Origin: Cyanophora paradoxa CCMP329 | Taxonomy: Eukaryota > Plantae > Glaucophyta | Length of the DNA stretch: 64,000 nucleotides | Assembly (NCBI GenBank): GCA_004431415.1 | Contig: QPMI01000096.1 | Coordinates: 140,114-204,113 of the forward strand | Direction: 5' to 3' | Shown here: piece after piece, positions 15,244-56,600 of the stretch | How positions within the stretch are numbered: the first letter of the stretch is position 1 | How the letters are laid out: every line of letters starts with the position of its first letter | Position numbers and translations under genes: made by a program | The notes under the pieces: generated by a model | What the model was told of the DNA's origin: nothing | The model's database searches: none | The model's input: the letters and a program-made list of their open reading frames with translations, nothing else

Positions 15244-25096
<9,853 letters not shown>

Positions 25097-33198: not shown

Positions 33199-36100
33199 TT
33201 AGGTGGCGATCTCGCAGTCCGCAACGAGAGCCTCCTCCTCGAAAACGATATCTTCCGTCTCGATCTCGATCGCGAATTCGAAATCCGGGTTCTGCAGAAG
33301 CACCGGTGAGGCTCGAGCTCGCCGATCGCGAGAGAATTCGAGTGATCATGAGATTCGAGCGGACCTCCAGGGACGCGTCCTCGTCCACTTCGGCCACGTC
33401 CTCGTCCACGCGCCAGGGCAACGTGCGCGGGTCGACTTTCACACTGCCAGAACACAATATAAACATAATAATTAGAGGCGCGGCCTCCTCTAGGAATTCG
33501 AAGTCGCTTACATCTTGTCGACACGAACTTCCCCGTTCGCGTTCGCATTGTAGCACGAGGTGTCGACCGACTCGCTCCGCCAAATTTCCAAAACGCCGAC
33601 CGACTTGTACCCGTGCAGCAGGCACGCCTTGTAGAAATCGGCTCCGACGTCGGATGTGAAGAGGCCTTGATCGCCTGTGCAGTCGGCCTCCTGCGGGCCG
33701 GGCGTGAAGCGCGTCAGACATCGCAAAAACGAACAGGCCCAAGATCGGATAAGCGCGCGGCGGCATGCCTTGAAGCACATCTTGCGGAAATTGCCTGCGC
33801 AGGATCGGTTGGATTCGATGTCAAGATCGATATTAATAAACGACGCCGGCTTCGAGCTCGCATACCCCCCGAGACTGGGACGCCCAGGCTTCCCGCAGAA
33901 CGTGTTGATTCGTCCCATGACCACGAAATTCTGCGAAACTTTAGCCAGAGCCCGCCTCAACCGCGCCTCGCCTGGGAGAAGCACGTCTTGCTGGCATCGG
34001 TTGCCCCGGATGAGGTGACGTTGTAGCAGGAAGCCTTGTTCAGATCGGCGCCGCTTCCCGTCTGCTGGACGCCCATCGACTTGTACCCATTGTTGCTGCA
34101 AGCCTCCCAAAAGTCGTCTCCGACGCCCCTCGTCAGCAGAAACGGCTGGCCGGCGCAATCCGAATCCTGTCCCCAGTGGCAAACGAGATATATGAGTGAT
34201 CATGAGGCAGCATGCGCAGCCAGCAGCTGTGATAACGGGGATGTGAAAAGCGGCGGACCGTGTAGCAGACCGCGTTATTGTTGCCTAAGGTGAAGACGCC
34301 GCGGGCAGGCGTCAGAAGCAAACGCAAGCAGTGCCGCAGCATCAATGTATCGATGCGGACCCTTGAAAACAAACGTCCCGCCAATCTCCAGTTCGTTCGG
34401 CTCCCACGTCACCCTGTACGCGTTAAAGAATATTAATTATAATGAGCAGCGGAGTGGTAAAACAAATGATCATGAAACTGATCCTGAGGGCTCACAAAGT
34501 GTAGAAGCTACTGACGCTGGACTCTCCGTTTTCGCTCACATTGAAGCAGGTGCCCGCGCTGCTTCCATTCTCGCGTTGTACCGCCAACGACATGTAGCCC
34601 TTGGCTTGACAAGCCTTCCAGAAGTCGTTGCCGACACCTTCCGTCTTGAGGACTTGGTGTCCTCGGCAGTTCCGTTCCTGTACATGCACATGTCGCCATC
34701 ATCTGCAAAGTTTGCTTATAATTTCGCCAAGTGCAAGCGGACCGTAAAACAAGTTTTGTTGTATGTGCCTGCGGAGGGCAGCCGAACGGATTGATCGACG
34801 GCGATGTTCAACAGAAACGCGCAACGTTTACACACCGGTCTCCACTTGCGTTCCGCCCACCACGACGGGATCCCAGTTGACGCTGCGCCCGGCCAGCTCT
34901 CAAGCTCTCGACCCCGACTAAAGATATCGATTTCGGGCAGGCTATGTACATGTATACGTATAGCTGGATTGCACTCACGTCACTTTGCTGCTGTAGTTTT
35001 CTTGTCCGTTTGATTGCACTTCGTAGCAAGTCGCCTTCATTACGCCCCTTGACATCCCCGTTTGGACCGCCACGGCACCGTATCCGTTCGCTAGGCAAGT
35101 CTTCCAAAAATCGCCGCCAACGCCCTCGGTCTTCAGCCCCTGGTGTCCTTTGCAGAAGGATTGCTGCGAGCATTGTCAGCTCGAGAGCCGAGTCCTGCGA
35201 AGATCTAGACAAAGGCGGACCTTGAAGCAAACTTTGTTCTCGCTGCCTGCACGAACGATCAATATTAATTTTAATCATGATTGGAGTTGTGAGCAAAGGT
35301 TAGTGTGGAAGAGAGATCCAGATGCAAGGGAGGGAAAAGAGAGGGGTGGGACTAGATGCAAGGGCCGGGAGGGCATTGAGAGGGGTGGGACTACTTGCAA
35401 TTGGGCCTGATATCGATATTAATATATGCGAATAAGTGCAGGGGGCACTACCGTACGCGTAGTACGGAATAATACAGGCACGGGCAGGGCTAGCTATAGG
35501 CCTAGGGGGGATTCGCGGCCGCGCGCGCGCGTGTCGATCCGCTTACCCTTGGACACTTTGATTCCGCCGACCTCAACTGGGTCCCAGGGGAGCCTACCCG
35601 CACGCGGCCGCGAGGCCAATTCGTCAGATCTCAAATCCTATCGGCGGCGGCGTGTACGCTTATAATTATGAACTCACGTTCCCACGGAGCTCGACTCTCC
35701 CTCTGAGTTCACGTTGTAGCAACGGGCTTGGGTATTGTCGTTCGGCCATATATTCTTGACCGCAACGGACTTGTGACCGCCGACAACGCACCTGCGGTCG
35801 GGGCACGCATAATGGGTGATCATGAGATCTCGGAATCGAGAAGCCGCAGATGTATTATATATATATAGATGCCAGCATTCAGGAAAGCAGAGTCCCGTAT
35901 ACGTACGCCTTCCAGAAGTCGTTCCCGACTCCGAACGTTCGTAGACCCTGGGATCCAGTGCAATTCGAACCCTACGTGTAATCTATAAGTAACACAACAA
36001 TCGCAGGTCACAAATATTAAACTGTAAGCTTAGTGCAGAGATTTACCGTGTAGCAGACTTTGTCCAAGCCGCCTGCGGGCTCGTCGCAATTAATTAAAAA

Positions 36101-37387
36101 TTGCAATTGGATGCCTTCGCTTTGACGAGTCAGCGCACGTGCACGTACCCCGCTCAATGGAGACCCCCCCAACTTCTAGCTGGTTCCAGCTGACGCTAAA
36201 CCGCGTTTCAGTCGGGCAACGAGAAAGATTTGTACACTTGCTGAATCAATTTGAGCGTACGTCTTCTGAGCGTCCGTTTCCGAGATCCAAAATCCAGCTG
36301 GCTCCTTTCCAGGGTCGTTTGGCTTGTAAAGATTGAAGCAAGCGGCTTTACTGGGATCTCCTCCCTCCGAACGGACCGCCTCGGACTTGTATTCGCTTGC
36401 CTGACAGCTGATAGTTCGCGATCGCGTCACGCACACCGTATGCAAAGACTCGGCGATCGCGAGCCACGGGAATTTGCTTACGCTCTCCAAAAATTGCTGC
36501 CAACCCCCTTCGTCCACAGACCTTGCTCGCCCGTGCAGTTCAGGTCCTGTCACAGTGTACACGTGCAGTTGCGATTAGATTTTATATATAATAGCAAGAG
36601 ACCGAGACGTCGACAGCCTGGCAGTTCGGAGTCGGGATAACCGAAGATTTACCTTGTAGCAGACTCTACTTTGGGTGCCTGTGCGAAATTCGCCTTACAT
36701 TAATTAAATTGATCTACAAATCCGGAGGTGCCCAAACCATAGTCGACGTCAGGAATGCGGTTCAAATTTTCGCACCCGTGTCGACAATCATCCCGCCGAC
36801 CTTCAGCGGCTCCCAAGGGACTCTGCGCATGCGCCAGTCCGCGGCCACGCGTCAGCTGCAGCCTCTCGCGATCGACGCGTAGAAACAATTGAAATCCAAA
36901 GTAAAGCTGCTCGAATACGTGTACAGAGAATTTTCAGAGCTGTGCTCACGTTTTGCCGGCATCGGTTTCTCCAGATGAGCTCACGTCGAAGCAGGACGCT
37001 TTGCTGGGGTCGCCCGTCTGCTGAACTCCCATCGATTTATACCCGCTGTTCAGACATGCTTTCCAGAAGTCCTCGCCAACGCCGTCCGTCTTCACGCCCT
37101 GGGCGCCCAAACATCCGGCGTTCTGAGATTGGACGGACCCAGAGGACGCATAAGAGGCCCGCGCTCGAGGTGCTGGCAGCGCGCTCAGGCGCAAGCTCAT
37201 GATCAAGGCGCACCTTGAAGCACACCTTGGCGGCGTCACCTGCGCATATGCGTGTGCGTTGCGCCGGGGCGGGGCAGCGTTAGTTCTCTCGTACATAAAG
37301 CGGCTTATCGATCTAGAATTGGCCGCCGCTGAAGCGCACCCCTCAGAACTTCTGTGACCGGCCAACCCACGAGCTTCGTTGTCTCAT
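33199..37387 (-). CDS. Uncharacterised protein of 7 tandem ~100-aa 4-Cys repeats with acidic C-tail (multi-exon)
   Basis: Seven units of consensus W.P..VGG....G...KVC(Y/F)..C.G.QG..T.GVG.DFW.AC...GY.S..V......A.C(Y/F)NV...G, at ~37130, 36540, 35970, 35150, 34680, 34170 and 33690. Intron positions recur between units. The protein ends ...EEEALVADCEIAT* (TAA 33199-33201). The start MRQTKLVGWP at 37387 was chosen for intron-phase compatibility. Confidence 0.75.
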
Positions 37388-37876
37388 TGCCCATCGCTAT
37401 CACACTGTTTGACCGCTGAGCTATGTATGTAACTACAGCCGCTGAGCCTTAAGGCTTCGGATCTGCAGGGCCGATCCCGCGGCTATAGCTAGCGCTGCGC
37501 CGGAAACCGCGCCGCGATACTATGCTAGCACTGCGGCAATTGCACTGCGGCAATGCGACGGTCGGCCGCGGACGCGTAAGCTCGACCGATCTACTACCGG
37601 TAGCTCATGATCAGCGGCGCCGGCTATACCGGTAGGCTACTACGCCGCGACTCGGCGAGTCTACGCGTGGCGGCGTGGGGCCGCTGGGGCGGCGTTACGC
37701 CAGCGTACTACGGTATACAGTACGTAGTACGTACTCGCCGAATCGTGGGCCCGTGGCCCCGAGTCGTCACACGGCGTGGGCGGAGTACGCCACTGTACCG
37801 TAGTACGCGTGGGCCCCGCGCCGGGCCGCGCGGATGAACTGCAGCTGGGTCCTAGAGTCCTTGGCATAGGCTCCTA

Positions 37877-38122
37877 CCGTAGACGACTTAAATACCGCGC
37901 CACATATTACCGCGTTCTAAAATTTCGGCGCCGGTAGGCGCTTTAGCGCGGCACCAAATTAGCGCGTTTTCATCAATTTGGGGTACGGCCCATACAAAAG
38001 TGTTAGCAAATCTGAGCAAAAGACAATTACCGCGCTACCAAATTACCGCGTTATAAAACTTTTGAGCGCGGTAATTTGGTAGCGCAGTAGTTAAGTCAGC
38101 GCGGTATATAAGTCGTCTACGG
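37877..38122. mobile_element. Tc1/mariner (pogo/Tc2-like) MITE, 246 bp
   Basis: 24-bp TIRs CCGTAGACGACTTA(A/T)ATACCGCGC with 1 mismatch, flanked by TA on each side (37875-37876, 38123-38124). Internal ATTACCGCG repeats occur in both orientations, and the interior is AT-rich. Confidence 0.88.
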
Positions 38123-38492
38123 TAGCTACCGCCCAGCCTCAGGGCCTACCGGTATAGGCGCGGGGGCGAGGGGTGCCACCGCCGCGCGCGGCATGCGGCG
38201 GACCGGCCCGTCGAGCTCCGGGGCGGCCGCCGGGATCGCGCCCACCACGCGGGCCCAGTGCGCCCGGATCTCGTCGCGGAGCCCCGGGTCCGGGTCCGCG
38301 CACGCGGCGCTGCGCAGGGGGCCGCGCGTCGGCCACACCCGCGTCTCGGGGTGCGGCGCGAGGTCGGGCTTGAGCCCCTTTTCGATGCCCGGTTTATTTT
38401 CCTTGGCCCGCGCGCGCCCGGGGCGGCGCCGCTTTTATCCCCTGCGCCCGAATAAAGGGCCGCGCCTCGGTTCCGCGCGTCCGACGCCCCGC

Positions 38493-38789
38493 ATGGACGC
38501 GATACGGGAGGCCGCGCACGCTTCGGGGCTCGAGGTCGTCAACTCGAGCGGGGCGATGGCCCGCGATCCGCGGCGGGCGCTCGAGGTCATGCTGGCGGTG
38601 GCGCGCGCGCGCCCCACGGCGATCGTGGCGGCCGAGGTCTCGGGCGGAGCGGCGCTCGTCGCCCACTGCGCGTGCGATGCCCCGAGCGGATCGAGCGGGG
38701 CGACGCGGACGGGGCCCGTCGGCTCGTCGCGCGCGCCCGCCGCGCGGCCGACCCGACCGAGGACCCGCTCGGCATCGAAGAGGGGGTAG
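38493..38789 (+). CDS. Hypothetical viral-type ORF (MDAIREAAHASGLEVVNSSG...), probably frameshifted near 38680
   Basis: ATG at 38493 preceded by AATAAA at 38451. The N-terminus looks globular; a plausible acidic continuation lies in another frame (ORF 38672..38953). Confidence 0.4.
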   Translation: MDAIREAAHASGLEVVNSSGAMARDPRRALEVMLAVARARPTAIVAAEVSGGAALVAHCACDAPSGSSGATRTGPVGSSRAPAARPTRPRTRSASKRG

Positions 38790-38945
38790 TGGAGGAGGAA
38801 GAGGATGCGAAAAATGGGGGAGAGGAGGAGGAGGGGGAGGGGGACCGCGGGGGGGCGGCAAACCCGCCCCCACCCCCCCCGCCCCCGGCCGCAGACGAAC
38901 CCGACGACGCGTGCGCGTGCATCCTTCCGCTCCGCCTCCTCCTCC

Positions 38946-39230
38946 TCAGGTGATGCGTAGGATCCCGTGCCGCGCGCGGATGTCGGCGAGGTACTCGCCG
39001 ATCGCCGAGGCCACGACGGGGCACTCGACGGCGGCGGCGCGCACGACGCTCTCGGCGTACCCCGGCGTCAGCTCCAGGAACGCGCGGCGGTCAAAGTACG
39101 GGATGGGCCGGCCGCGGTAGCAGTTGGGGCACCCGTCGTGCGGCGGGAGGGGCCTCGGCTCCATCCTCGGAGGAACCGGGTAGATGGGCGTCGGGAGGAC
39201 GACGTGGACGGGAGGTGCGTTCGACGCCAT
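38946..39230 (-). CDS. Hypothetical 94-aa intronless protein (CPNC motif)
   Basis: ATG-to-stop ORF with non-shadow amino-acid composition and an AT island ~35 nt upstream. Confidence 0.55.
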   Translation of the reverse strand: MASNAPPVHVVLPTPIYPVPPRMEPRPLPPHDGCPNCYRGRPIPYFDRRAFLELTPGYAESVVRAAAVECPVVASAIGEYLADIRARHGILRIT

Positions 39231-39307
39231 CGCCGAGTCGCCCGGGCGGTCCTCGGACGGGGCGATAAATAGGCGGGCGCCGGCCGGCGCGCCCGTCCGC
39301 GAACCCG

Positions 39308-39595
39308 ATGTCCCTCTTTGCCGCGCCGCCCCCCTTGGGCGGTCCCGAGCCGGATCCCGCGACCCTCGCCGCGATCAAGACGTGCATCACGTGCGTGCAC
39401 TACCTCGCCGACCCCCACCGGGCGCGCGACGGCCTCTGCATGGCCTTTGCGGAGATCAACCCCGTCGACGGACTCCGCCAGACGAGGGCGCGGTGCAGCC
39501 GAGAGAGGCAGCACCTCCTCGGGAGGTGCGGGCCCGACGCGCACCGCTACCGCCCGCGCGGGGCTAGTGCGTCGAGGGGCCGCGCGAGGACGTGA
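39308..39595 (+). CDS. Small Cys-rich protein, CxxCxHY...C..F...NPVDG...R...CGPDA, resembling giant-virus hypothetical proteins
   Basis: Intronless ORF divergent from the 39230 ORF, with GATAAATA between them. The motif pattern is recalled from large-DNA-virus ORFans and was not searched. Confidence 0.55.
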   Translation: MSLFAAPPPLGGPEPDPATLAAIKTCITCVHYLADPHRARDGLCMAFAEINPVDGLRQTRARCSRERQHLLGRCGPDAHRYRPRGASASRGRART

Positions 39596-39938
39596 GGATC
39601 CGGGCGAGGAGATGCACCTTGTGCGCGATTCGTCCGTCCCCGCCCACCCTGCCGCCCACGACGGCCGCCCCGAGGGCGGAGCCCAGCTCCCGGGCGTGCG
39701 GCGGGATCTCCTCGTAGAGCTCCACGAAGCGCCGTCGTACCGCAGGGCACGCGCCGGCGGCGACGAGCAGGTAGGTCTCCGCCCGCGCGAGGTTCTCGTG
39801 CAATAGGTGCTGCTTCTCGCGGATGTAGCCGCACGGCTCGCCGTTTTCGCAGAATCCGCACGAGCGCGCCTGCTTCCAGTCGACGACCCGCCTATCGCAC
39901 CGCATCTTTTCGAAAAGAAAGGGGAACTCGCCTTCCAT
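39564..39938 (-). CDS. Hypothetical 124-aa intronless protein (CGFC..C)
   Basis: ATG-to-stop ORF; TATTAATAAAAA island ~40 nt upstream; 3' end overlaps the convergent ORF. Confidence 0.55.
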   Translation of the reverse strand: MEGEFPFLFEKMRCDRRVVDWKQARSCGFCENGEPCGYIREKQHLLHENLARAETYLLVAAGACPAVRRRFVELYEEIPPHARELGSALGAAVVGGRVGGDGRIAHKVHLLARILTSSRGPSTH

Positions 39939-41552
39939 GCGTACGCGCGCGCGATCCGTGGGGGAGGGGGGCGCATTTTTATTAATACGCGAAACGCCCT
40001 CACCGGGCGCGCCGGGTTCCGACCCTCGGGCCAGCGTCCACGATCCCGGCCTCCATGGAACCCCCCGCGTCGGCGAGGAACCGCCGGATCGCCGTCGGCG
40101 CGCCCCGCGGTGTCGCGGCGGTCGCGTCGGGCCCCCAGCCCGCGACGAGGTCGGACCACAGGAACGGGTAGAGGTCGCCCTCGGTCAGGTCCGCGTCGCC
40201 CGAGGGGTCGCTCGGGATTCCCTCGGGGGGGTACGGGGTTGCGAGGGCCGCCTCTGGCGGCGCCCTTGTGCACCCCGCGGGGGACAGTGCGTAGCAGCTT
40301 CGTCTTCTACAGCCTGCTGGCGTTCCGGCAAGCCCGGGATCATCGCGCCCGCTGGCAGCTAGCGCAATCTCGGGAAAGATCGACAGCCGCGCCTGGCGGG
40401 TCCGGCGCCGATCTGGGCTCGTCCTGGATCGTACGCCGTGCGCGTAAGGACGCCCCGGGCGCGGCGGATCCCCCGCGTGCGCGCAGGTTGCTCTTCGGAC
40501 GCACCATCCAACAGCGCCCGGCAAAGTAGAAGGCGGCAGAGGCGGAGCGAGTAGGACCATTCCTCCCGCCAGATGACGCCGGCCTCTCGATGACCGGCGG
40601 CCGCCGAGGTTCCGCCGCACGGGGGTCCTCCTGTGCGTCTCCTCCGGCGCCGGGACTCTCCTCTCTGCTCCGCTCTCGGGTCCTCGTCCTCCGGCGGCCC
40701 GCGTCTCTCTCCTGCGGGCACCCGGGGCGCCCGCCAGCGGGTCGGCGACGGTGGAGCCTCGCCGCGGCCGCGCTGCGATCGGGGCAGGTGTCTGGCGGCG
40801 GCGGACTGGTTCTCACGCACTGGTGGCGGGAGCTCGAGGAGGAGGAACCGCGGCGCGAGGTGGCGGCTCACCCCTGGCAAACCGCTCCAGCGGCGGCCCC
40901 GCGCGGGTCGCCGTGGCGGAGTTGGGGCGCCGCGCGCCACCCGCAGTCGTCCCCTTTCTCTTTCTCTCGTCCTAGATATAGAAGTAGGAGTAGGCGACGC
41001 GCGCGACGCTACGTTTCTTTCTTTCTCGTCGTCTATCTCTGAGGTTGGGTTCCTTCGCAGATCCTTTCCTGCTTTCGTGACTCCTCGTAGGGATATGCCT
41101 CGTGCATCCTGGAATATAGGCTATTATGTACTGAGGTGTACGTGGGCAGGCTATCGGAAAACGAGAACCCTTGCTCCCCGCAGTACATAGGTCTGTTTTT
41201 TCAGGACCTTTTATGAGGATGGGCCCATGGGCAGCTGTCTTGCTATTCTCTACTTGTTAGTGAGGCAGACTGGTAAACTTCGGTTTTGGGTAGATTCGAC
41301 TTGTCTACTTTCGGAAGGGTCCGGTAGATTGATGTGGTAGTGCCGTCAATATACCGTCATTTTTGCAAAAAAAAAGCCCGAGGGGTCGCTCGGGGTCCCC
41401 CTCCCGGCGGGTCCGCCGGTCGCCCGTAGGGGGTACACCGACGCGACAAGGGTACCCTTCTCTCTTATATTATTATATTATATTATTTAATAGATTTCAA
41501 ATTCAAAACTAAAAAAGTAATAGATTGTATACTGTGGTAGTAGTCTACAAGC

Positions 41553-41807
41553 ATGGTCGGAGACTACCTCTACTACGATCTCCCCAAGGACGGCGAAAAG
41601 TCGCGCAGCTTTGGAAACACGGGGAAGCGCCTCCTCGCGATTCGCAAGCTCAAGCTCTACAACGTCACCCCCGACAAGCCGCTCGACGGCAAGATGCTGG
41701 ACGCCTACGACTACGCCCGCACGATCTCTCGCGTCTTCGGGCGCGCGATGTCCAAGGCCAAGCCGGGCAAGGAGCTCGACGTCCTCCTGGGCGGTTACAT
41801 GTGCTAG
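41553..41807 (+). CDS. Hypothetical 84-aa basic protein (MVGDYLYYDLPKDGEKSRSF...)
   Basis: Clean ORF with strong C/G third-position codon bias, directly downstream of the AT-rich (ATATT)n block. Confidence 0.65.
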   Translation: MVGDYLYYDLPKDGEKSRSFGNTGKRLLAIRKLKLYNVTPDKPLDGKMLDAYDYARTISRVFGRAMSKAKPGKELDVLLGGYMC

Positions 41808-42349
41808 GGGCGAAGCGGCTTTTTCCCCACCCTCTGTTCCCCGCCCATTTTTCTCGCTCGAATTCGATTCACCGCCCTCTATCCGCAAGCCTCGGCGGCC
41901 TCGTCGCGCCGCGCCGGGGGCATCGGGCCGCGGCGCCGTCGCGCCGGACGCGACCGACAAAGGGCCGCACGAGGGCGAGGTAGGCGACGGGCAGGAGGGC
42001 GACCTGGGCCGCGGCGACGGCGAGGTGCGCCCCGCGGGGCCCACGCGGCCTCGTGCAGGCGCGCCCTCCGGATGGCGGCGTCGGCCTCGACGTCCCGGAG
42101 CGCCGCGACGAGGGTGATGGTTCCGTCCCGGGCGCGCGGCGAGGCCGCGGCGGCCGCGCACATCGAGGCGTTGGACGGACGCGGGCACGGGAGCGGCGGG
42201 CCCGACTCGGCGGCGCGTCGGAGCTCGGCGGCGGCGCGCGCGAGGAGCTCGCGGGCGGTGTCGAGTCGGGGCGCCGGGCAGCGTCTACGAGCCGGCCCGC
42301 CGGGCGCGCGCGACGCCGCGCGGCATCCCCCTCGTCCCCGCCTGAGCGC

Positions 42350-42480
42350 CCCTCCTCCGCTTCTTGATCGTGTGGTAGGACGCAAAGTGGTTCTTCGATC
42401 CGCAAACGAAGCAGCAGTTGCCCTGCGCGCGCCGCATCGTCTCCATGAACTTGGGGTCCTCCCACGGGGCGCGCGCGATC
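42350..42480 (-). pseudogene. Zn-knuckle-like fragment (CFVCGSKNHFASYH; Cx2Cx4Hx4H)
   Basis: 'PWEDPKFMETMRRAQGNCCFVCGSKNHFASYH'; no credible N-terminus, since it runs into the antisense of the capsid-like fragment. Confidence 0.5.
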
Positions 42481-42525
42481 CGCGGCGACGGTCGCGAGCG
42501 GGTCCCAGCGCAGGCCGCGCTCCCA

Positions 42526-42705
42526 GGGTCCGCCGAGGCGGTTGCGAACGACAAGGCCAAATACTTCAGCATCAAGCTCACGGCGAAGAACCTCTCGCTG
42601 CTGGTCCAGAAGAACCTCCCGGTCCCGCTCGGCATCCTCATCTTCCGTCCGTTCATCACCCACTACGCCGCGTCGGCGATCATGACGGTCAAGGGCGAGA
42701 CGACC
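42526..42705 (+). pseudogene. Fragment resembling mirusvirus HK97-fold major capsid protein (C-terminal region)
   Basis: GSAEAVANDKAKYFSIKLTAKNLSLLVQKNLPVPLGILIFRPFITHYAASAIMTVKGETT. The 'P.P...LL.RPFI.H...SAIMTV.G..T' pattern is recalled as conserved in mirusvirus MCPs. The codon usage of this patch is distinct from its flanks. Not verified by search. Confidence 0.55.
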
Positions 42706-42922
42706 GCGGAGATGCGGCCCGTCGGCGCCGCCCTCGTGGCGCGCGGCCTGACCGGGTCCGAGGCGATCCGCGCGGCGCGCGACGCGGCCACGCCCGAGGC
42801 GTCCCCCGCGTCGGACCGTCGGAGGGGCGACGATGCGCGCCGCGTACTACGACGCCCGCCTGCGCCCGGGCGACGAGGAGGAGTTTGCGCGTCGCTTCCC
42901 GGGAGACGCGCGCTCCTCCGTT

Positions 42923-43548
42923 TCACGCGTAGTACCCGCGATCGAAGCACGGCGGGCGCGGGACGCGCACGTCGACCATCACGTCGATCATCGGGTACCG
43001 ACGGCGGCGTTCGGGTTGACGATGGCGCGGGCGGCCGCCGGAGTGATGACGCTCGTCCCGAGCCCGTCGTCCTCGGCGAGGCGGGGCGCTTCCCACGCGC
43101 GCGTCCCGGTCGAGGTAGGCGTTGGCCTCGTGCGCCTCGCCCGGGTGGCGGCCCGCCCGTCCGCGCGCGCGCCGCCGCGAGCGAGGCGATCGACCCGGCG
43201 TACGCGGGGGCCGGCGGCTCCAGCCCCGGGTCGCCGGCACCGCGACGCGCACCTCGGACGCGGCCCTGCGCAGGCGCGGCCACAGCGCGAGCGCGGCGAT
43301 CGCCTCGCGCGCCGCGTCGGCCAGGACCGCCTGCGCCTCGTCGCGCGACATCTGCGGGACGCGGAGGCCGCGGTAGCGCCCGCCGTAGGTCTCCGTGTAC
43401 GAAACGTGCTGCTTCGGGTCGTACGTCTTCCCGACCTCGGAGCGGTTCAGCTTCAGGTTCGCCCGCTGCGCGGCCGCCTTCTTCCTCGGAGGGGTCTGCC
43501 AGCACTGGACCTCGACGAATTCCAGGCCGCCGTCGAACTGCGCGTCGC
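42923..43548 (-). pseudogene. 5'-truncated intronless gene fragment (DAQFDGGLEFVEVQCWQTPPRKK...KTYDPKQHVSYTETYGGRYRGLRVPQMS)
   Basis: Protein-like composition from ~43548 down to ~43230. Upstream of 43548 the frame is merely antisense of the Cys/LamG gene. Confidence 0.45.
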
Positions 43549-46500
43549 ACGACGGCGACCCCGAGGTCCCCGCTTGGTACGTCCCCCGCGGATCTTCCCC
43601 GTGCGGGCGCGTCTTCGGGTGCGACGGGCGGTGGGGGTCAGATGCGCGGATCGACCCGGACGGTTCGTGCAGACCCGGCGCGGACTCGCCCGCGTGCACG
43701 CAGTCGGTCCCGTCGCCGCGCCGGGGATGCGCCGCCTCCGACGTGATTCTACCCCCACCCTCCAACGCGACGACGTACGCGCGGTGCGCCGAGGCGTGCG
43801 CGAACCAGCCGATAGACATGTGCGGCGGAGCCTCCTTCGAGTCGGCGACCGGCACCTGCCGCCTCTGGTTGCGCCCTCCGGAGAATTGCACGGCGGAGTG
43901 GACCGCGCCCGCGGACGGCCTCGCCTGGTTCGTCCCGTCGGGGCCGTGCCACCGCCTCGGGTGCGACGGGATCTGGGGGAGCGAGATGCGCTGGGCCTCG
44001 TGCGCCGTCGCCGGCGCAGGCAACTACACCTGCGCGCCGAACGGGTTCTGCCCCCGCCCCCCGCCGACGCCTCGCCCCGGGGGGTGCGACGGCCTCGGCT
44101 CCGAGGTCGACGCGTGCGGGACGTGCGGTGGCCCGTTCGTGGGCGGCCTCCGGTGCGAGGAGGGTCCCGCGCCCCTCGCGCTCGTCCCAGCCGACCTCCC
44201 CGCCGCGTGCGCCGGCTTCTACGACGCGTGCGGCACGTGCAACGGGACCGCGAGCGCGGCCGAGTGCGCCGCCCCCTGCGACGGCGTTCCCGGGAGCGAC
44301 CGGTACTGGGACCGGTGCGGCCGATGCGGCGGCGATGGCGAGACGTGCCGTGGGTGTGACGGCGCCGACGGGGTTGTGGACGCCTGCGGTGTCTGCCGCG
44401 GGGACAACTCGACCTGCGTCGACTGCGCCGGCGTCGCCGGCGGGGGCCGCCGCCTCGACCGGTGCAACGTGTGCGGCGGCGATGGGCGTTCCTGCGAGGG
44501 GTGCGACGGCGTCTTCCTGTCCGGGCGCACCTACGACGCCTACCGCACGTGCGGCGGATCGGAGCGCGAGCGGCGCCTCCTCCCGGACCGCTGCGGCGTG
44601 CGCGGCGGGCGCGGCGACGGATGCACCCCGGAGCTCTTCGACGGGACCGCAACGGTCGCGCTCCCGCCCGGCGGCGGGCCGTGGTCCTTTGCATCCTGGA
44701 TCCGCGCCCTCGGCCCCGGGGTCGCGTTCTCCTCGTCCTGGGAGGACACGGAGCTCGGGTGCCGCCCCGCAGAGGGCTCCGCCTGGGTGCGAATCGACGC
44801 CTCGGGGCGCCTTCGCCTCGAGGGCCCCGCCGGCGCGGCCGACGGGCCCGCCCTCCCGTCCCCCTTTTCCGCGTGGCACCACCTCGTGCTATCGCGCGCC
44901 GCGGACGGATCCCACGCCATCTACGTCAACGGGACGCGCGCCGCGTCGATCGGCGGGGGCCCGGCGAACATCACCCTCCCGGGCCGCGTCGTCGTCGGGG
45001 AGGGCGCGCCGTGCGGCGCCTCGGGGCCCGCCCCGGGCCTGCGGCTCTCCGACGTGCGCCTCTGGCTCGCCGAGGCCGACGACGCGCGCGCCATCGCCGA
45101 GATGACCCTCCCGCCGGGCGCGGCGGGCGCTCTGGCCGCCGCGGCCGCGCCCGTTATGGCGATCGGGGGCGCCCCGCGCTCCGGCGCCCGAACCGAGGGG
45201 GGGTCGAGCTCCGCGGGACGGTGGGCTCCGCCCTCGATGCCCCCATCCTTGCATCGCACGCCGCCCCGCCGGTGACCGCCGAGGACCCCGCCGATCCCGC
45301 GCCAGGGTGCGCCTTTCCCTCCAACGCGTGCGGCCAATGCGCGCCCCACGCGGACCCCGACGACCCGGACGCGTCGTGCCCGCTCGACTGCGATGGCGTA
45401 CCCCTCGGCCCCGCCATCCGCGGACCCTGCGGATCGTGCGAGTGCCCCACCGGGACGGGCCCGATCCCGCCGCCCCCGTGGAAGGCCACGGTCCTCGACC
45501 CGTGCACGGGCGCGACGGTGCGCCCGGAGGACGCCTACGCGTGCATCGACCCCCGCGCGCGAGCCTCCGGCCGCTGCGCACGCTCGCCCTCCCAGCGCCC
45601 GAGGCGGGGCGCGTCGGGGCGGAGCTGTGGTTCGCGGACCCGGATCCCGCGTCGTTCTCCGTCGAGCTCGCCGGCCTCCGCGTCGCCATCACCCCGGCGG
45701 GGGACGGACTGGAGGTGGCCGCGACGGGCGCGCGCCTCGGCCCCGTCCCCGCGCGCGGCGCCTGGGAGCGCCTGGTGCTGGAGGTGGACGCTGGGTCCGG
45801 GGCGGCGCGCGCGGCGGCGGGCCTCCGCATCCCGTCGGAGGCGACCGGGTTCGCGGCGCGGGCGGGCCGCGGCCTCCGGATCGCGGGGCGCGCTTCTCCT
45901 CCGTGCGCGTCACGGAGGGGCGCCCCGCGTTCGAGCTGCCCTCGGGCGAGTCGACGCCCGGCGCGTGGGCCCTATGGCCCATGAACGAGGGTTTCGGGCG
46001 CGAGGTGCACGACGCGACCGACGCGAACCGCACCGTGCCGGCCCCGTACCGCCGCTGGGTCCTCGCCTCCCGGAACGAGACGGCGAACCCGGTCCGGTTC
46101 GACGTCCACCGCCCCTCGTGCAACGGGACCTGGCGCGGCGCCGAGGCGCGCGACGCCTGCGGGACCTGCCTCGGAACCCGTGCGACGGCCGCCGCGTGCC
46201 CCGCCGAGGTGCCGCTCGCGGTGGCGCGCGACGCCCGCTGGATGGGGCCCGCGACGCCGCTGGACGTCGTCCTCCCCGCGGAGAGCACGGCCGAGTGCGC
46301 CTCGCTCCTCCTCTCCAACCGCTCAGAGCGGATCGATCCGACCTTTTTCGGCGCCTCGTACGACCCCCTCGCGCGGACCTGCACCCTCCATCGCCTGGAG
46401 GAGGGGGTCGCGCCCGCGGACCGCGACCTCGCCTCCCTGGAGAGCGAGGTGGGCGCCTCGTTCGTCGCGCGCTCCGCGGCGCGCCTCCCGCCGCCCCTGC

Positions 46501-46993
46501 CGACCTCGCCGCCGGCGCCGAGCCCACCCCGGCACCCTACGACTGCCCCTCCTGGGTCGCCGGCGTGTGCGTCCCCGTCCCGAACGTCGCACCGTCCGCG
46601 GGGTCCCGCCGCGCGGCCGCGCCGGGCGCTACTCGCGCCTCGCCCTCGTCCCCGCGCGCCCGACGCGCGCACCGACGCGTGCGCCGCCGAGGCGCGCCGC
46701 GCCGGCGTTCCGTGGTCCGCCCGCCAGGGCCGCGCCTGCTGGCTCCTCCCCGAGTTTGACCCGGCGTCGGCGGGCGGGTGGGACTACGCGGGCCCCGACG
46801 CCGTCGTCGTCGAGCCGTCCCTCGCCGACCTGACCAACGGGACGCGCCCGCGCCTCGTGGTCTCCGGCTCCGGCACCCTCTCCGCCGCGGTCTACGAGGT
46901 CTCGTTCGGCGACTGCCCCGCGGGCCAGTGCCCGCTGGGCGCCATCCCGTACCTCTGCCACGCGGATTCCGGGACCTGCGTCGCGTCCCGGAA
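43549..46993 (+). pseudogene. Intronless, frameshifted, both-ends-truncated Cys-rich adhesin-like gene: PAN/apple-like, CDG..DxCGVCGGD repeats, LamG/ConA-like
   Basis: Repeated GCDG...DACGVCxGD units (44080-44630). LamG-like 'WSFASWIR...WHHLVLSR...IYVNG...LSDVRLW' and 'ALWPMNEGFG'. PAN-like 'CAEACAN...CGGASF....TCRL'. Protein-like sense switches frame near 45200, 45570, 45890, 46500 and 46650. Confidence 0.7.
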
Positions 46994-47609
46994 GTCTGCG
47001 CACAAACATGTCGAGCTCGCGCCTGAGCGGCGCCTCACCTGTCACAGGCTGTCAGTCCCTCGTGCGGCTGGGGGCCCCGTCACCCGTGTCCTACCAATAA
47101 GAGTACCGTGGGGCCGGAAGGCCTCACCCCTCCTGGAACGGTTCGAATTCGCTGCACAAAACTATCAAGGTGGACGAAATAAAAGACAAAACCACTCAGA
47201 ATTGCCGACCTCCGATCCTACGTTAGGTCGGTAATTACAGATGAACGGATTTAAAAAACCTAGCTGCAGATGTAGCTGCAGAAACGGACTCATCAAAGCC
47301 AGCGTGCTTCAAGGCTTGCCGCTGCTTGAAGTCTGCTTGGAAGAAAATTGTGTCAATATTAATAGAATGCGGCTGCAACTAGAATTTGAAACCGAGCTGG
47401 AGGTACTACATCCGTTGTATAATATACGGATACCTGCATACGCGAAACTAGCTTCTATACAAACGAGGCGAGGCTGTAGCTCGGGCCGAGATCATCGGTG
47501 TCAGAAAACACAACAACAAAAAATGCAAGCGGGAAGCTTTAAGGGCCTAAGTAATCGAAGACGCAAGCTCCCGGAGTCGGGAGGGCCTCCCATCGAGTCG
47601 ATCAATCGA

Positions 47610-50600
47610 TCAGTTGTAGGGGTCGAGGTAGTACCCGCCGGCCTCGCCGTCGCGATCGCAGAGGTTCGAGCTGCAGCTCGAGCCCGGCTGGAACGAGCTG
47701 GTGGAGGCCGCGTGGCGGGGGTACCGCCCCACCGAGAAGCCCGGCGCGCCCGTCGCGGCGCGCACGGCGTCCGCCAGCGGGCCCCAGCGCCGCGGGTCCT
47801 CCGAGGCGGCCGGGCCCAGGGCCGCCAGGAAGCCCTGCGGTCGCGCCGCGGATCAAATCCCGGATCAAATTCGAATTCGATCCGGATCAAATCTCATACC
47901 TGGAGGGCGGCCTCAGCGTCCGTGCGCCAGAGCGACTGGATCCGGTCCTGGATGTGCGCCGCCTGCAACGCCTGCAGCGAAAATCAGGGGGCGGTTGGCG
48001 ACGCCTGCGGCGAAAGTCGGGGGCCGTACCCGGGCACGGCGGATGATGTCGGGGCGCTCCCGCTCGATCCAGTCAATGATGGCTGCGGCGAAGATGAGGG
48101 AGGGGTACGCAAGGAAACTTCCGAAAGTTGGATTCCAAGCGGGGGCGCGCGCACCGAGATGGGGCGGGCGACGGGGTCCAGGGGCTCAGTGGCCGGCGGC
48201 GGGTTCCCCCGCCGGTCCGCCACGTACGAGAGCCACTGAGGGGGAGCTCAGGCGCAGTGCGGGATCGTGGGAGGGCCCGGGCAGGGCGGGGCGGACCTGG
48301 AGGATGGCGGCGACGCCCGAGAGGTCGTCCGGCACCGTCAGGTGCGAGACGCCTGCACGCGGCGGCCGCCGGGCGTCAGTCAGAAAGGAGAGCAGGCTCT
48401 AGCAGATCCAAATCGTGGCCGGGCAGGGCCGGTCCGGGCCGGTCCGGGCGGGGCGGGGCGGGGCGGGGGCGGGGCGGACCGTTGGTGTGCATGACCTTGG
48501 TGCCGCCGATCTGGAGGTTGCTCGTGTAGACCTCCCGCCCCAGCACCTGGCCCCACCCTTAAGCTTCAGAGGCGCGGAGAAGACGAGGGGCCGGGGAGGG
48601 AGGGAGGGCGCCTTGTTTAGGGCCTGGAAGCCGGTGAGGATGATGGGGCCCGTCCCCGTCTTCTGGATCACACGCTGCGGCCTGCGCCTCAGCGAGCGCA
48701 GAGAGGCCTGGCCTAGGGCGGGGCGGACCTGGCCGAGGCGGACGAGGTAGGCCCCGATGCCCACCGTCCGGCTCGTCACGAACCTGTACGCATACGTCGC
48801 GGCCGCGTGAGAGAGGGAGAGAGGGAGGGAGGGCGCGAACTGTTAAGAAGATAGATCTCATCTAATCCATGGCCATCATCTAACCCATGTTTCTTTCTTG
48901 CTCTCTACGCACGTGAGGGTAAAGGTCTCCTCGTAGGCGCGGCTCGTCTCGCCGGCGATGAGGCCCGAGCCCGACAGGTTCTCCACCCCGAGCCCGTCCT
49001 CCGCCCCGATCTGGCGGCGCCGGCGTCAGCGGCGCCGAAAGACGAAGGCCGAATGTTCAGAAGAGGAGCTAGGATCGTGTCAAAGGAGCCGGTGGATAGG
49101 AGATGGATGGTTGGCTGGTCCGGGGAAGGAGGAGGACGGCAGCGCTCGAGCCAAATCCAAACGAGCGCACGATGTCGAGGATGCGGTAGCGGGTCTCGGA
49201 GCCGCCGCCCTCGCAGACGACCGTCACGGGCTCGCAGACCACCGACTTGCCCTTCAGCCGCTCGTGGTCCGCGGGGGTCAGGTACAGGTACCGGTGGCCC
49301 TGAAGGAAGAAGAAGGAGAAGAGGGAGCTTAGAAAAGCTTAGGATGAAAAGAGATGGAGAAGCTTTAGGGCGCGGGACCTTGGCGGGGCAGCCGGGGTCC
49401 ACCCACTCGACCTTGAAGCAGGCCTTGACCTGCGCTCCCGCGCGCCGTCAGCTCCGGAGGAGGAGGGGACGAAGGGGAAGCTTAAGGGATCGGCACAGAG
49501 AGGGGGAGGGGGGGAGGGGGCGCGGAAAGTGGCGGCCTCCTATCGCTCGCTCGCGCTCAGCGGAGCGGGGATCTATCTCAGGGCCTAGGGGGAGGGGGCG
49601 GGCCTCGGCGGCGAGGTGGATGCGGGCGCCCGAGTTATAAGGCTCTATAAGGTTCCAAGGTTCTCTAAGGTTCTCTAAGGTTCTCTATGATGAGGCTCTT
49701 CGGGTTAGGCTTCTAATTATAAGGTTCTTCCTTAAGAAGAAGAAGGGAAAGTTTAAGGGATCGGACCTCGGCGGCGAGGTTGATGCGGGCGCCCGAGTTG
49801 GCGGCGAGGTACACGCGGGGGAGGCCCTCCCGCCGGGCCAGCTCCGACGCCTGCTCAGGTCGGATCGGATCAGATCAGATCAGATCGGATTTGATCGGAT
49901 CGGATCAGATCTGACCTTCTGGAAGAGGGCGTCCTCCTTGGGGCTGAACGAGCCGCTCTGGTGCGTGATGTCGTTCGCGATCAGAATGATCTCCCGGCCC
50001 CTGCGGGGGGTACAGCGATCAGGAGTCGGGGGGGGGAGAAGAGCGGATGAAATGGGGGCGGCGCACCCCTCCTCGGGGTACTCGGGCGTCCAGAGGCGCA
50101 TGCGCCACGCGACCATGCCCACGTCGTTCTTGCCGGGGCCCCTGAGCGCGGAGGAGCGCGGGTTAGACTTCGGCCGGAGAGGGGTACGAGAGGAGAGCGG
50201 GAGGGGGGTACCGGGTCGTCTCCTGGAGGGCGCCGTCGGGCCCAAGGACGAGCTCGGTCGCCTCCATCAGGCGCGCGTTGACCTTCGACTGGGAAACGCT
50301 CAGAAGCTCGAATAGAATAAGGGAGGGCGGGGGGGTACTTTCTTGCGGAAGGAGTAGGAGCGCCAGGCGTCGGCGGCGGCGCGGGCCGGGGCGGCGCGGA
50401 GGCGCTGCTCGGTGTTCGCCTTCCAGCAGTCCGCCAGCGCCTGCGACGGGCGAGGAGAGAGAGAGAGAGAGAGAGAGATTCGTAAGTGAGAGGGGCAGCG
50501 GAGGGCGGGGGGGCGGGGGAGAGAGAGGGCGTCCCCGGCACCTTCTCAAAGAGCGCCGGGAAGTCGTAGACGTAGGAGGTCCCTGCGGGGCGAGGGCGGG

Positions 50601-53600: not shown

Positions 53601-56600
53601 GAAAGTCAGATATGATCCGAGAGTCGCATCTGAAAACGGGGCGGGGCCCGCCTGCTTGCGCTGGTCGTTGGTGGGGTTCGCCATCGCAGTGAGGAGCGCC
53701 CGCGCGCGCAGCGCCACTGCCGGTGGCATCGGCGAGGGGGAGGAGGAGGGGTACCGGCGGACGTCTGTCTCGAGGCGATCGCACGCACCTTCCGCGTAGG
53801 GCCGCCCGGCGAACGCAACGAGCTAAGGAAGGCGGGGGGTACATTGAGCTTCGGCCCGACCTCGGCGAGCGAAAAAAACGCGCGGGGGGGGGGGTACCGC
53901 ACCTGGTGGAGGGCGGCGGCGTAGGGCTCGAGGGGCCCGGCGGCCATCTTCTCGAAGGCGGCCGCCAGGAGCTTCAGCTTGCGCGGCAGGCCCGCGTGCG
54001 AACGAAGCAGGTCCACCGCCTTTCCGGGGGGGGGGGGGGGGGGAAGGATCAGGGTTGTCGAAAACACTGGAAAGGCTGTACCCCCCCCGCACCTTGCCGA
54101 GGTCGGCGTGGAACTCGTCCCGCAGGGCCTCGATCGCGTCCTCGTCGGGCTTCCCCTGCGCTATTTTTAGGGCGGGCAAAGGGGGGGTACGGCGGCCTCC
54201 GGACGGACCGAGGAGAAGGGGAGCTCGGAGGCGATGAATTCGCGGAGGAGGGAGCCCAGGGCGGCCGCCTCGCGCCCGGGGAGGCCCCCCGCGTACGCCG
54301 AGCAGAGCTCGGCAAGGGGCTTGGCCTGCGCGGGAGAGAGCTATAGATAAGAGAGAAGCGGGGGCGGCTCGTATGTATGAGGCGTGGGAGGGAACCTGGG
54401 CGGCGAGGGCGTCGCGCTCGGCCTTGGAGGGCAGCGCGGCCGCCGTCGCCTCGAGGAGGTCGCTGAGGGGCCCCACCCGAAGCAGCTCGGGGCGACCCGC
54501 GCCTTCGCCGGCCGCCAGCTCGGCCTCGTAGGCGGCGAGCACCGCCTCGGCGCCGGCCACAAGCGCCGGCGGCACGCGCGATGCGATCACGCTCAGGACC
54601 TGTGCTCGGGTGAGCCGTTCCCATCTTGCGACAGTCGCGCTCAGGCGGGCGGATCCGGACCTCGCGGAACTCGAAGAGGGGGAGGCGGGGGTCCCGCAGG
54701 CGCCCGACGAGCTCGTCCAGAACCTCGGGGCGCCCCTCGTAGCCGGCCATCACCGCCCGCGCCCCCGCCAGCGCCTCCCGCATCCGCTGCTGCGGCTGCC
54801 CCCGCACGCCGGTCATCAACCGCTTTCCCTCCGGCCCCCTCCCCCTCCCCTCCCCTCCCTTCGTTCTCGCACCTTGTCGCCGGTGGAGCGGGGCGGGCGG
54901 GCGGGGGGGAGGGCCCCGCGCCACTCGGCGGCGCGGCGGACGCGGGAGGGGTCGTCCAGCTCCAGCGTCGCGATCAAGTCCCCCGCTTCCAGCACGGAAC
55001 CCTCCACCTGATCCCGGCTCGGATCAGATCAGATCAGGCTCAGGTGATTCGGAGGACCTTTCGGTAGGAGATGCGGCCGGCCTCGGGGGCCACCAGCGGC
55101 ATGTACCTGGCGGGCGAGCAGGCCGGGATCAGATCAGATCGGATCAGATCATATCAGATCATATCACATCAGATCGGATCAGATCAAATCGCACATCTTC
55201 ATGACCTCAATCTCGGCGTAGGGCGCGCCGGCCCCCACGTGCGCCCCGTCCTCCAGCAGGTGCCGCACCAGCTTCCCCGTCATCTGCGAACGAAGCTGCG
55301 GGGGTACAGGATCAGAGTGGAAGGGGGGGGGGGGGGGGGGGATCCGCGGGCCTGGCTGGGGTCGTACTCCTTGGGGAACTGGCAGGTCCTGCCGTCCAGC
55401 AGGAGGCGAAGCCCTCCCACCTCCTCCCGCGCGTACACAACGTGCGACTTGCCTGAAGCGGCGGTGAGACCCGGGGGGTGGGGGGGGGGGAGATGGAGGG
55501 GTACGGAATCTTCCTCACCGTCGAGGAGGACGAGGAGGCCGCCGTCGGAGAGGGGCCGCACCTCCGCCTCCACGGCGGTCTTGTTCGCCATCAGCCGGAA
55601 GCTGCGCATGGGGGGTACCGTTTCATAGGGACCGGCGCGCTCGGGGGTACGGGGGCGAACCAGTGCGGCCCCGTCTGCTGCGCCGAGAAGACGTACTTGA
55701 CGTCATCGTAGATCAGCTCCACGGCCGACGTCACGCCCAGCAGCAGCCTCGAGGGGACCTTCCGGGCACGGCTCGGCGGACGGGTACGGAGAAAGAAGGG
55801 GGGGGTACCTGGCCGCGGGCGAGGGCCTCCCGGACCTCGTCCGCCCGCTGCCCCGCCTGCTTGTGCGCGCGCTGGGGGGTACGTGAGCACAGGCCGGGGA
55901 GGGGGTACATGGCGTTGGGGGAGGGGGGGGGGTACCTGGAGGGCCCCGCAGAGGACGGCGGTCATCGTGTCGGGGCGCTCCGCGCTCACCTTCTCCGCGA
56001 TGAGGCCTGAGGGGGTACCCGGTGAGCGAGGGGCGAGGGGGTACGAAGCAGGGGATGGGGGGGGAGGGGGGGGAGGGAGGGAGGGGGTTTTTACCGTCGA
56101 GCCACTGCGTGTGGAACTGGTTCTCGGCGTAGTTCTTCATCTGCAGCAGCTTGATGAGGTACTCCACCTGGGAGGGGTACCGGCATCATCAGCTCGAGAT
56201 CGAACACCCAAGGGGAGAGGGGGGAAAAGGTTCACCGGGGTACGGATGTCTCCGTGGATGGAGATCTCCTTCAGGGCGCAGACGAGGTTCTTTCGGGCCA
56301 CGTCGCGGGTCTCGCCCCACGCGAACAGGTGCCCGAACTGCAGTCGCGCACGCGCGGGTGAGCGAACTCCACGTTTCAAATTAAAGGGCCCGAACAGGGC
56401 TCGAACCTGCGAGTCGGAGTACTCGTGGATGCCGCCGCGGCCGGAGACGGAGAAGTAGCCCCAGACGGACGTGCTGGAGCGAAAGTTGAGCTCCTGGATC
56501 TGCCCGCTCGTCGGCTGGAAGCCCTGCGAACGAAGTCAGATCAGACGCGCGCGGGGTACGTGCACCCCGGGGTACGCGGACCTCGTCCGGGTTCTCCGCT

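Follow-up and report, generated by a model that had tools for sequence, protein, structure and literature searches.

The window analysed here, a 64,000-nucleotide (nt) stretch of Cyanophora paradoxa CCMP329 DNA (contig QPMI01000096.1), contains a viral remnant that extends from about 38.1 to 47.0 kb (38126..46990, both ends being approximate). The remnant is intron-free and gene-dense, is flanked on both sides by intron-rich host genes, and consists of about 7.7 kb of viral DNA (roughly 8 kb) plus one host insert. Its left border is a MITE-like, high-copy host repeat (37874..38125) with 27-bp terminal inverted repeats and an inner 33-bp hairpin, whose depth in short-read DNA run X1 is 3755 versus about 60. 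(Rfam gave a sub-threshold hairpin match alone, at 38021-38098.) The right border is a short multi-copy host repeat (47100..47139), seen in the short-read contig tables; among the matches listed, contigs of the presumed RNA runs X15-X18 begin on this side at 47132-47169. The remnant is joined to the host chromosome, since a single 7138-nt contig, found in runs X1 and X9, spans 41346-48412 at flank-like depth and reaches the 3' part of a host carboxylase gene. Direct and inverted comparison of the two ends against shuffles revealed no terminal inverted repeat or target-site duplication common to them.

The left arm (38126..39938), as defined by ORF calls and homologue searches, contains small viral ORFs at 38129-38434 (minus), 38493-38789 (plus), about 38535-38915 (minus), 38946-39230 (minus), 39308-39595 (plus) and 39564-39938 (minus), for which no homologues were found. 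Four small ORFs within this interval have an ATG start behind an A/T-rich box, and such a box, with A/T runs of 6-13, lies upstream of all five ATG-started ORFs of the left arm. Coding-frame scoring places a further strand switch near 38680. To the right, a minus-strand viral ORF (40000..41455, 5' end approximate) is split by a multi-copy, A-tailed, SINE-like insert (40217..41375, plus), which is bordered by a 19-bp target-site duplication at 40198-40216 and 41376-41394. The depth of the insert in X1 is 555-1145 versus 50-60, and contigs of the presumed RNA runs X15 and X17 cover it; a retro-element has inserted into the left arm. ORF A (41553..41807, plus), a complete viral ORF of 84 aa, follows behind an A/T-rich spacer.

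The middle of the remnant consists of four to six short headless pieces between two arms of 3-4 kb, and no piece of this mosaic has an internal stop. Piece B (41869..42285, minus) is an Ala/Arg-rich ORF that is headless, ends in a stop of its own and contains two assembly gaps; its frame ranks first of six and leads its shadow by 20 nats in each half. Piece C (42285..42500, minus), the zinc-knuckle-like 3' part of a gene, has its own stop at 42285 and is cut on its 5' side between 42463 and 42546. Its CX2CX4HX4H motif matches Pfam zf-CCHC at E 0.068, short of the cut-off, and matches to HNH PHROGs are weak (E 0.06-0.11); homologue searches with C gave no true match, just one low-complexity chance match. 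Piece D, a capsid fragment, is fused in frame to the Ala-rich piece E (42706..42815, plus), which is not capsid. Piece F (42833..42930, plus), a short ORF in another frame that converges on the end of G, is either a separate piece or the shifted continuation of E. Piece G (42923..43547, minus) is headless, about 205 aa long, and has its own stop and five listed assembly gaps inside; homologue searches with it found no match, and its PHROG match is weak (phrog_34108, E 0.0066). Piece H (43548..46990, plus) encodes a headless, intron-free Cys-repeat protein of about 1150 aa with a LamG/ConA domain (Laminin_G_3, E 2.8e-6); a homologue search with H found no match, and the piece fades into host DNA near 46990.

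Piece D (42529..42705, plus) is a stretch of 59 aa from the interior of an HK97-fold major capsid protein; it is cut on both sides and abutted by unrelated sequence on each. It aligns with residues about 415-473 of the Logan protein P0001 (E 1e-9), and it scores 34.9 bits against the HMM of its capsid family (65 proteins of 587-1198 aa), while 500 shuffles reach at most 3.0. A predicted model of the capsid (pLDDT 77) matches those of phage SPO1, HFTV1 and herpesviruses. Relatives that carry the fragment are rare, numbering only two (P0001 and P0002) among 1.84 billion proteins. Several other homologue searches with D gave no match, and the capsid profile likewise matched nothing among PDB sequences. 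Judged by eye, P0002 seems to contain either a frameshift or an intron that was not spliced out. The rest of the capsid gene is absent from the 64-kb window, where D itself is the only match among 1354 frames, and a comparison of 37 capsid loci showed no neighbour in common with the remnant. No terminase, portal, triplex or protease was matched in the remnant by Pfam or PHROG profiles, which are not mirusvirus-specific. The source of the remnant is a large HK97-capsid DNA virus, likely a mirusvirus; we take this label for the capsid piece from the fold, the host and a motif, and no search returned that name. D is the only piece with a firm homologue. The codon style and the lack of introns suggest for B, C, E, F, G and H a viral source in common with D, but host exons have the same codon style as these pieces.

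The patchwork is real. Contigs from three short-read DNA runs (X1, X9 and X12) carry it unbroken across all its junctions. The contigs of X1 and X12 span all of 41380-47200, and those that cross junctions show 0 substitutions relative to the window at a depth of 48-81, the same as in the host flanks and consistent with a single copy. Among the matches listed for the X1 and X12 contigs, which can show presence only, there is no second copy of the mosaic or of its pieces longer than about 40 nt at 88% likeness. What these contigs do correct is the reading frame: 13 one-base gaps within the 5.8 kb from 41380 to 47200 are assembly errors of the window. In particular, the contigs carry one extra base after 42029, 42035, 42997, 43082, 43151, 43160 and 43233 (12 of the 13 gaps are listed), and at least seven of the gaps lie within 41880-43600, where many frame changes are assembly errors. 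These errors are the one point in favour of the idea that misassembly made the mosaic as a whole. Given that contigs of three runs cross every junction without substitutions, and that sampled words of the window are present at 92-93% in 14 DNA runs (one of which may be the source of the window), this idea is rejected for the junctions, its likelihood being negligible.

Because the one-base gaps are assembly errors, the apparent frameshift decay of the remnant is mostly false, and point decay is in fact slight. All 18 viral segments share one codon style with a GC3 of 0.88-1.0, and there is no CpG decay, in that the excess of T/A in CpG context is absent (4% versus 8-10% elsewhere). From this common codon style, the high GC3 and the lack of CpG decay, the pieces appear to be of similar origin and recent; the remnant as a whole, which has taken up a single SINE-like insert, also looks young. 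The earlier proposal that viral DNA was cut and re-joined, rather than eroded by point mutation, is supported: the pieces are stop-free, high in GC3 and free of CpG decay, the capsid gene is cut in the middle of a motif, and the junctions are clustered.

Three junctions had been proposed from the sequence, and each is borne out. At ~42525 a minus-strand zinc-knuckle piece was said to abut a plus-strand capsid piece; the strand switch lies near 42480-42530, and coding-frame scoring gives 42525 as its best point (90% interval 42463-42546); the minus frame of C (42345-42476) leads the plus shadow with which it shares wobble positions by 6.9 nats, and the plus frame of D leads its own by 31.4 nats, although the knuckle match itself is weak. 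(An AG dinucleotide lies at 42525-42526, directly 5' of D, and the 5' edge of D could at most be a native splice acceptor.) The firmest of the three is the turn from capsid into an unrelated Ala-rich frame at ~42705. Here homology stops at a glycine column that hardly varies in the family (G474 of P0001), and 58 of the 60 matched family proteins (65 given) extend a further 189-352 residues past the cut point. At ~43548, where two 5'-truncated genes were thought to be joined back to back, the minus frame of G leads its shadow by 28.2 nats, and an internal repeat (62% over 26 aa, E 1e-8) shows H to be coding from 43572 onwards, although the first Met of H comes only at 43818. The accompanying claim that start codons are lacking holds for the starts of the pieces, but in-frame ATGs do occur inside C, E and F; none of the four in-frame ATGs of the mosaic that were checked has an A/T-rich box, the longest A/T run being 1-2. 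The B/C boundary and the E/F boundary (located at 42810-42834) may be single frameshifts.

The three firm junctions lie within 1047 of 7681 nt (P 0.05) and all five within 1257 nt (P 0.003), in a test that was made after seeing the data and in which the switch near 38680, if it is a junction, would weaken the clustering. Hairpins at the junctions are not significant at C/D (P 0.43), D/E (0.17), B/C (0.46) or E/F (0.10); at G/H the hairpin is weakly significant (P 0.09; 8-bp arm, P 0.03), uncorrected and in one zone of five. Wobble phase is kept at the three firm junctions, for which the expectation is 1/27 by chance and 0.05-0.12 under microhomology, and is lost at B/C and E/F, so that the overall count of three in five is not significant.

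How did this arrangement arise? On balance, we lean towards a remnant of an HK97-capsid virus, likely a mirusvirus, whose middle was probably joined in one complex end-joining event and which is likely inert. The viral DNA would have been broken up in the nucleus either at its capture into a double-strand break or during the repair of one large internal deletion in a longer provirus. End joining would then have linked the two long ends via several short fragments drawn from other parts of the viral genome, as happens in complex NUMTs and NUPTs. PMC6215612 describes complex insertions built from pieces that differ in place of origin and in orientation and that were linked up either prior to capture or in its course. 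A single event is favoured by the crowding of three to five junctions into 1.0-1.3 kb, with a long arm on either side. The opposite orientation of the pieces is not in itself evidence of inversion, because a divergent gene pair that had lost its promoters and both 5' ends by deletion would look identical. Against this reading, no donor or intact relative was found in homologue searches with the pieces. A possible, though less probable, history is one in which a whole provirus lost more than 95% of its length through serial, collinear, end-joined deletions, the strand switches being original gene orientations. All junction types seen here (two divergent, one to three tandem) need no inversion, deletion and truncation have been reported for giant endogenous viruses (PMC12455990; PMC12210455), and in simulations of independent deletions of a 300-kb genome 46-87% of runs leave 4-9 pieces, as fits the remnant. 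However, both end pieces exceed all inner pieces in only 7-22% of simulated runs, inner-piece medians are 0.6-1.4 kb versus 0.1-0.65 kb here, and clustering and two long arms occur together in just 4-8% of runs. In addition, a median of 9-39 deletions would be needed before point decay had left more than a trace.

Other explanations fare worse. It is very improbable that the locus keeps a native, intron-rich mirusvirus layout in which D is a capsid exon and C a nuclease in its intron (a shintron), spliced in cis or in trans. The AG before D, the weak HNH matches of C and the possible unspliced intron of P0002 fit such a layout, and spliceosomal introns that encode HNH nucleases target the capsid genes of mirusviruses (PMC12768974); yet the 3' end of D has no GT, no other capsid exon exists in 64 kb, C is headless and on the opposite strand, G/H is left unexplained, and the available text of that paper reports trans-splicing for terminase, not capsid. 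Slimmer still is the chance that a host transposon captured the fragments. Elements of the Pack-MULE or Helitron type typically carry scraps of genes in either orientation, and both ends of the remnant touch host repeats, but the similarity of the ends is not above that of shuffles (direct and inverted scores of 24 and 23 versus null maxima of 30 and 27), the interior is single-copy, and the kb-long arms are collinear. The sequence-only reading had also speculated that the locus is a host archive of viral fragments, akin to a flamenco-type EVE cluster, that feeds a defence by small or antisense RNAs. Fragments of several genes, the capsid gene among them, do lie close together, and the nearby insert covered by presumed RNA contigs, together with a host gene end, could drive read-through. 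The idea nonetheless has no support and is very unlikely: the locus is an 8-kb, single-copy one between host genes rather than a repeat cluster, its pieces lie on mixed strands, unlike the single-stranded 143 kb TE-EVE hybrid cluster of Aedes (PMC7161354), and the mosaic has no promoter box, long inverted repeat or repeat-spacer structure. No RNA run is named among the runs listed as carrying sampled words of the window, and over 41380-47100 the presumed RNA runs X15-X18 gave no long contig, their matches not exceeding about 40 nt; this has no bearing on expression. A more elaborate version is no easier to credit, namely that a repair-coupled host route cuts incoming mirusvirus DNA into pieces of 100-600 nt and links these up at one chromosomal locus beside an expressed SINE-like element, with read-through products that restrict the virus. 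The products in such a reading would be RNAs (antisense or small) or else a chimeric peptide that includes the capsid fragment, made from the open frame beginning at ATG 42445; if it were true, a protist would possess a heritable memory of viral fragments.

Taken together, and returning to end joining, the remnant is a decayed viral insertion of an ordinary type whose mosaic is unusually fine, and it presumably yields no virus and is tolerated by the host. Endogenous mirusvirus sequences in protists (PMC10827195) likewise show an HK97-type capsid in a eukaryotic assembly. Many of their markers are abnormally short (medians of 100-200 aa) and are read there as decaying genes, whereas the capsid marker here is short by cutting and fusion rather than point mutation, and the Pfam and PHROG profiles matched no further hallmark gene beside it. 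In Acanthamoeba and Euglena, insertions of giant viruses (PMC12210455, PMC12455990) are similarly partial, deleted, recombined and invaded by host mobile elements, and PMC12210455 describes viral insertions as degraded, silenced and invaded by transposons. In contrast to the remnant, they derive from Nucleocytoviricota, are mostly larger and are often present in duplicated copies; the available text of these papers mentions no junctions on a scale of 100-600 nt combined with so little point decay. Complex NUMTs and NUPTs, or numins (PMC6215612), share the adjacency of pieces from different places of a foreign genome, but the donor here is viral rather than organellar, so that the remnant would resemble such an insertion in mechanism without belonging to that class. 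The flamenco-like EVE piRNA cluster of Aedes aegypti also sets viral fragments beside transposon sequence, yet it has small RNAs shown and differs in size and strandedness as noted above (PMC7161354). Mirusvirus shintrons (PMC12768974) share capsid sequence beside a weakly HNH-like ORF and an AG before the capsid piece; the remnant differs in having no donor site or other exons and a headless nested ORF. Our literature search found no paper on the rearrangement of endogenous mirusviruses by non-homologous end joining, and none on small RNAs or siRNA from GEVEs in algae, which does not prove their absence from print.

For this assembly, the lesson is that frameshift "decay" is in large part sequencing error. 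More broadly, the remnant records infection of the host by a barely sampled capsid lineage. It suggests that rearrangement may destroy such insertions before point mutation acts, and it bears on the question of whether viral insertions in protists are accidental captures or decayed proviruses.

The window is eukaryotic in composition and gene structure (GC ~67%, short introns), and within it lies a gene-dense block without introns at ~38.1-47.0 kb, a viral remnant that contains the mosaic of headless gene pieces at 41880-43600. To the right is a multidomain acetyl-CoA carboxylase gene (~47.2-58.5 kb, minus strand), and to the left are further intron-rich genes; these names were assigned by eye from translations. 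In the carboxylase gene, several short introns at 56300-58300 (minus strand) either form palindromes or start with the same 17 nt as the intron next to them, which suggests intron-generating elements. An intron-containing gene of lower GC (0.52-0.56) at 33500-37250 (minus strand) carries a Cys-rich domain seven times, spaced 476-808 nt apart. Host exons at 26400-30700 (minus strand) presumably resemble a cation/proton antiporter joined to an NAD-binding dehydrogenase-like domain, and a subtilisin-like host gene at 15400-23900 (plus strand) continues, by eye, into many repeated Cys-containing beta domains.

The sequence-only reading had seen here a patchwork of fragments switching strand abruptly, and this is confirmed once its frameshifts are discounted. 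Sampled words of 37500-47300 are present at 92-93% in 14 DNA runs. In each of the short-read DNA runs X1 and X9, 41346-48412 lies on one contig of 7138 nt that differs from the window by 13 gaps and by no letter; its depths are 48 and 81, where single contigs of the flanks have 50-59 and 59-100. Runs X1 and X12 give the same picture over 41380-47200, again with zero differing letters. Because the contigs of X1, X9 and X12 continuously span the junctions unchanged at flank depth, misassembly of the junctions is ruled out, and the block is continuous with the host gene. The contig is longer by 13 nt, so all 13 gaps are bases absent from the window: single bases, mostly at G/C runs, missing within 5.8 kb (41380-47200). 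Twelve of the 13 were listed individually, seven of these inside the mosaic. With placeholders at the gaps, pieces B (41869-42285, minus), G (42923-43547, minus) and H (43548-46990, plus) turn into long frames; residual shifts occur in G near 43090 and in H near 46650, at most one of which is the thirteenth, unlisted gap. Any frameshift read from other parts of this assembly should be viewed with suspicion.

The identity of the remnant comes from piece D (42529-42705, plus), which matches two proteins among 1.84 billion, P0001 (686 aa, E 1e-9) and P0002. (After residue 500, P0002 appears by eye to run out of frame right behind a conserved motif, which would fit an intron left unspliced or a frameshift.) A search with P0001 yields a family of 65 proteins. 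The structure model of P0001 (pLDDT 77, pTM 0.76) matches the capsids of phage SPO1, HFTV1 and herpesviruses (best E 2e-6), so P0001 has the HK97 fold; since a large capsid protein of this fold, when seen in a non-animal eukaryote, points to Mirusviricota (PMC10827195), we infer a putative mirusvirus label for the family. With a profile of 62 members, D is the only match among the window's 1354 frames (34.9 bits versus at most 3.0 in 500 shuffles). The match ends at G474 of P0001, a nearly invariant column, and 58 of 60 matched members extend 189-352 residues past this cut.

The other pieces are less distinctive. C (42285-42500, minus) has a zinc-knuckle-like motif, with all family matches below threshold; G has a single weak PHROG match (E 0.0066); and H has a LamG domain plus Cys repeats. 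Residues 1-35 of H recur at residues 81-103, which shows plus-strand coding 250 nt ahead of the first Met. In a clean codon model all nine called segments (two halves of B, C, D, E at 42706-42815 plus, F at 42833-42930 plus, two parts of G, and the start of H) rank first of six frames, with small margins for C, E and the H start (6.9, 5.1 and 3.5 nats); the 16 codons of 42478-42528 stay undecided. In the left arm (38126-39938), each of the five ORFs that open with an ATG is preceded, at a distance of at most 60 nt, by an A/T run of 6-13; the four mosaic ATGs checked have runs of 1-2 (three of nine positions tested lay a few nt off the ATG). An open frame from an ATG (42445-43016, plus) crosses the opposite-strand shadow of C, then D and E; a chimeric peptide is possible, and no promoter box was seen for it. 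Another strand switch (38663-38692), convergent and keeping wobble phase, separates ORF 38493 (plus) from a minus-strand ORF; either the two ORFs overlap natively here, or this is one more junction.

The 18 viral segments all have a GC3 of 0.88-1.0. In CpG context, T or A occupies third positions less often rather than more often, and neither methylation-type decay nor internal stops were found in these segments. A left-arm gene is split by a 1.16-kb multi-copy SINE-like element (40217-41375) that has an A-tail and is flanked by a perfect target duplication of 19 bp; no Rfam match was found for it, its depth is ~10-20x single-copy in DNA runs, and very deep contigs (to ~14000) span it in X15, a run guessed to be RNA. 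The left border (37600-38150) consists of nested palindromic MITE-like repeats (27-bp TIRs, 33-bp hairpin, depth ~60x single-copy), and the right border is a short repeat; end-to-end comparison found no TIR or TSD common to both.

If the promoter region between two divergent genes is lost along with their 5' ends, two back-to-back headless genes result, so orientation alone is no proof of inversion. Serial deletion of a mirusvirus-type genome was simulated from 300 kb to 7-8.5 kb with deletion sizes drawn from three laws (400, 400 and 150 runs); its starting size was assumed after the 275-325-kb circles of PMC10827195. Such a history agrees in piece number (4-9 in 46-87% of runs), but both end pieces are longest in only 7-22% and the inner pieces are larger than those observed; we regard it as a credible but rather unlikely source of the end-joining debris. 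The junctions are clustered relative to uniform placement (P 0.05 for three, 0.003 for five), although these tests, like the simulation, are post hoc and modest. We therefore lean towards two long arms joined through several scraps in one repair event: viral DNA would have been broken, and the arms then linked through small scraps by end joining. Complex NUMTs/NUPTs have the same pattern (PMC6215612). On balance, the mosaic is very likely end-joining debris of a mirusvirus-type genome, and more likely than not from such a single event. No relatives of the other pieces were found in 37 capsid-bearing loci, and neither junction hairpins nor wobble-phase conservation across junctions was significant.

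It is tempting to see instead a native mirusvirus intron layout (the shintron, PMC12768974) with D as capsid exon, since an AG lies directly before D, and faint HNH matches are seen in C; however, a donor site is absent at D's cut, and the window holds no second capsid exon. The speculation that the fragments are an archive for small-RNA defence is very improbable, as the Aedes case is one-stranded and set in a cluster (PMC7161354), and the mosaic is neither. The remnant belongs to an already known kind, the decayed viral insertion; methylation-silenced, degraded insertions are the usual state in protists (PMC12210455, PMC12344493, PMC12455990). A defence archive, if shown, would matter much.
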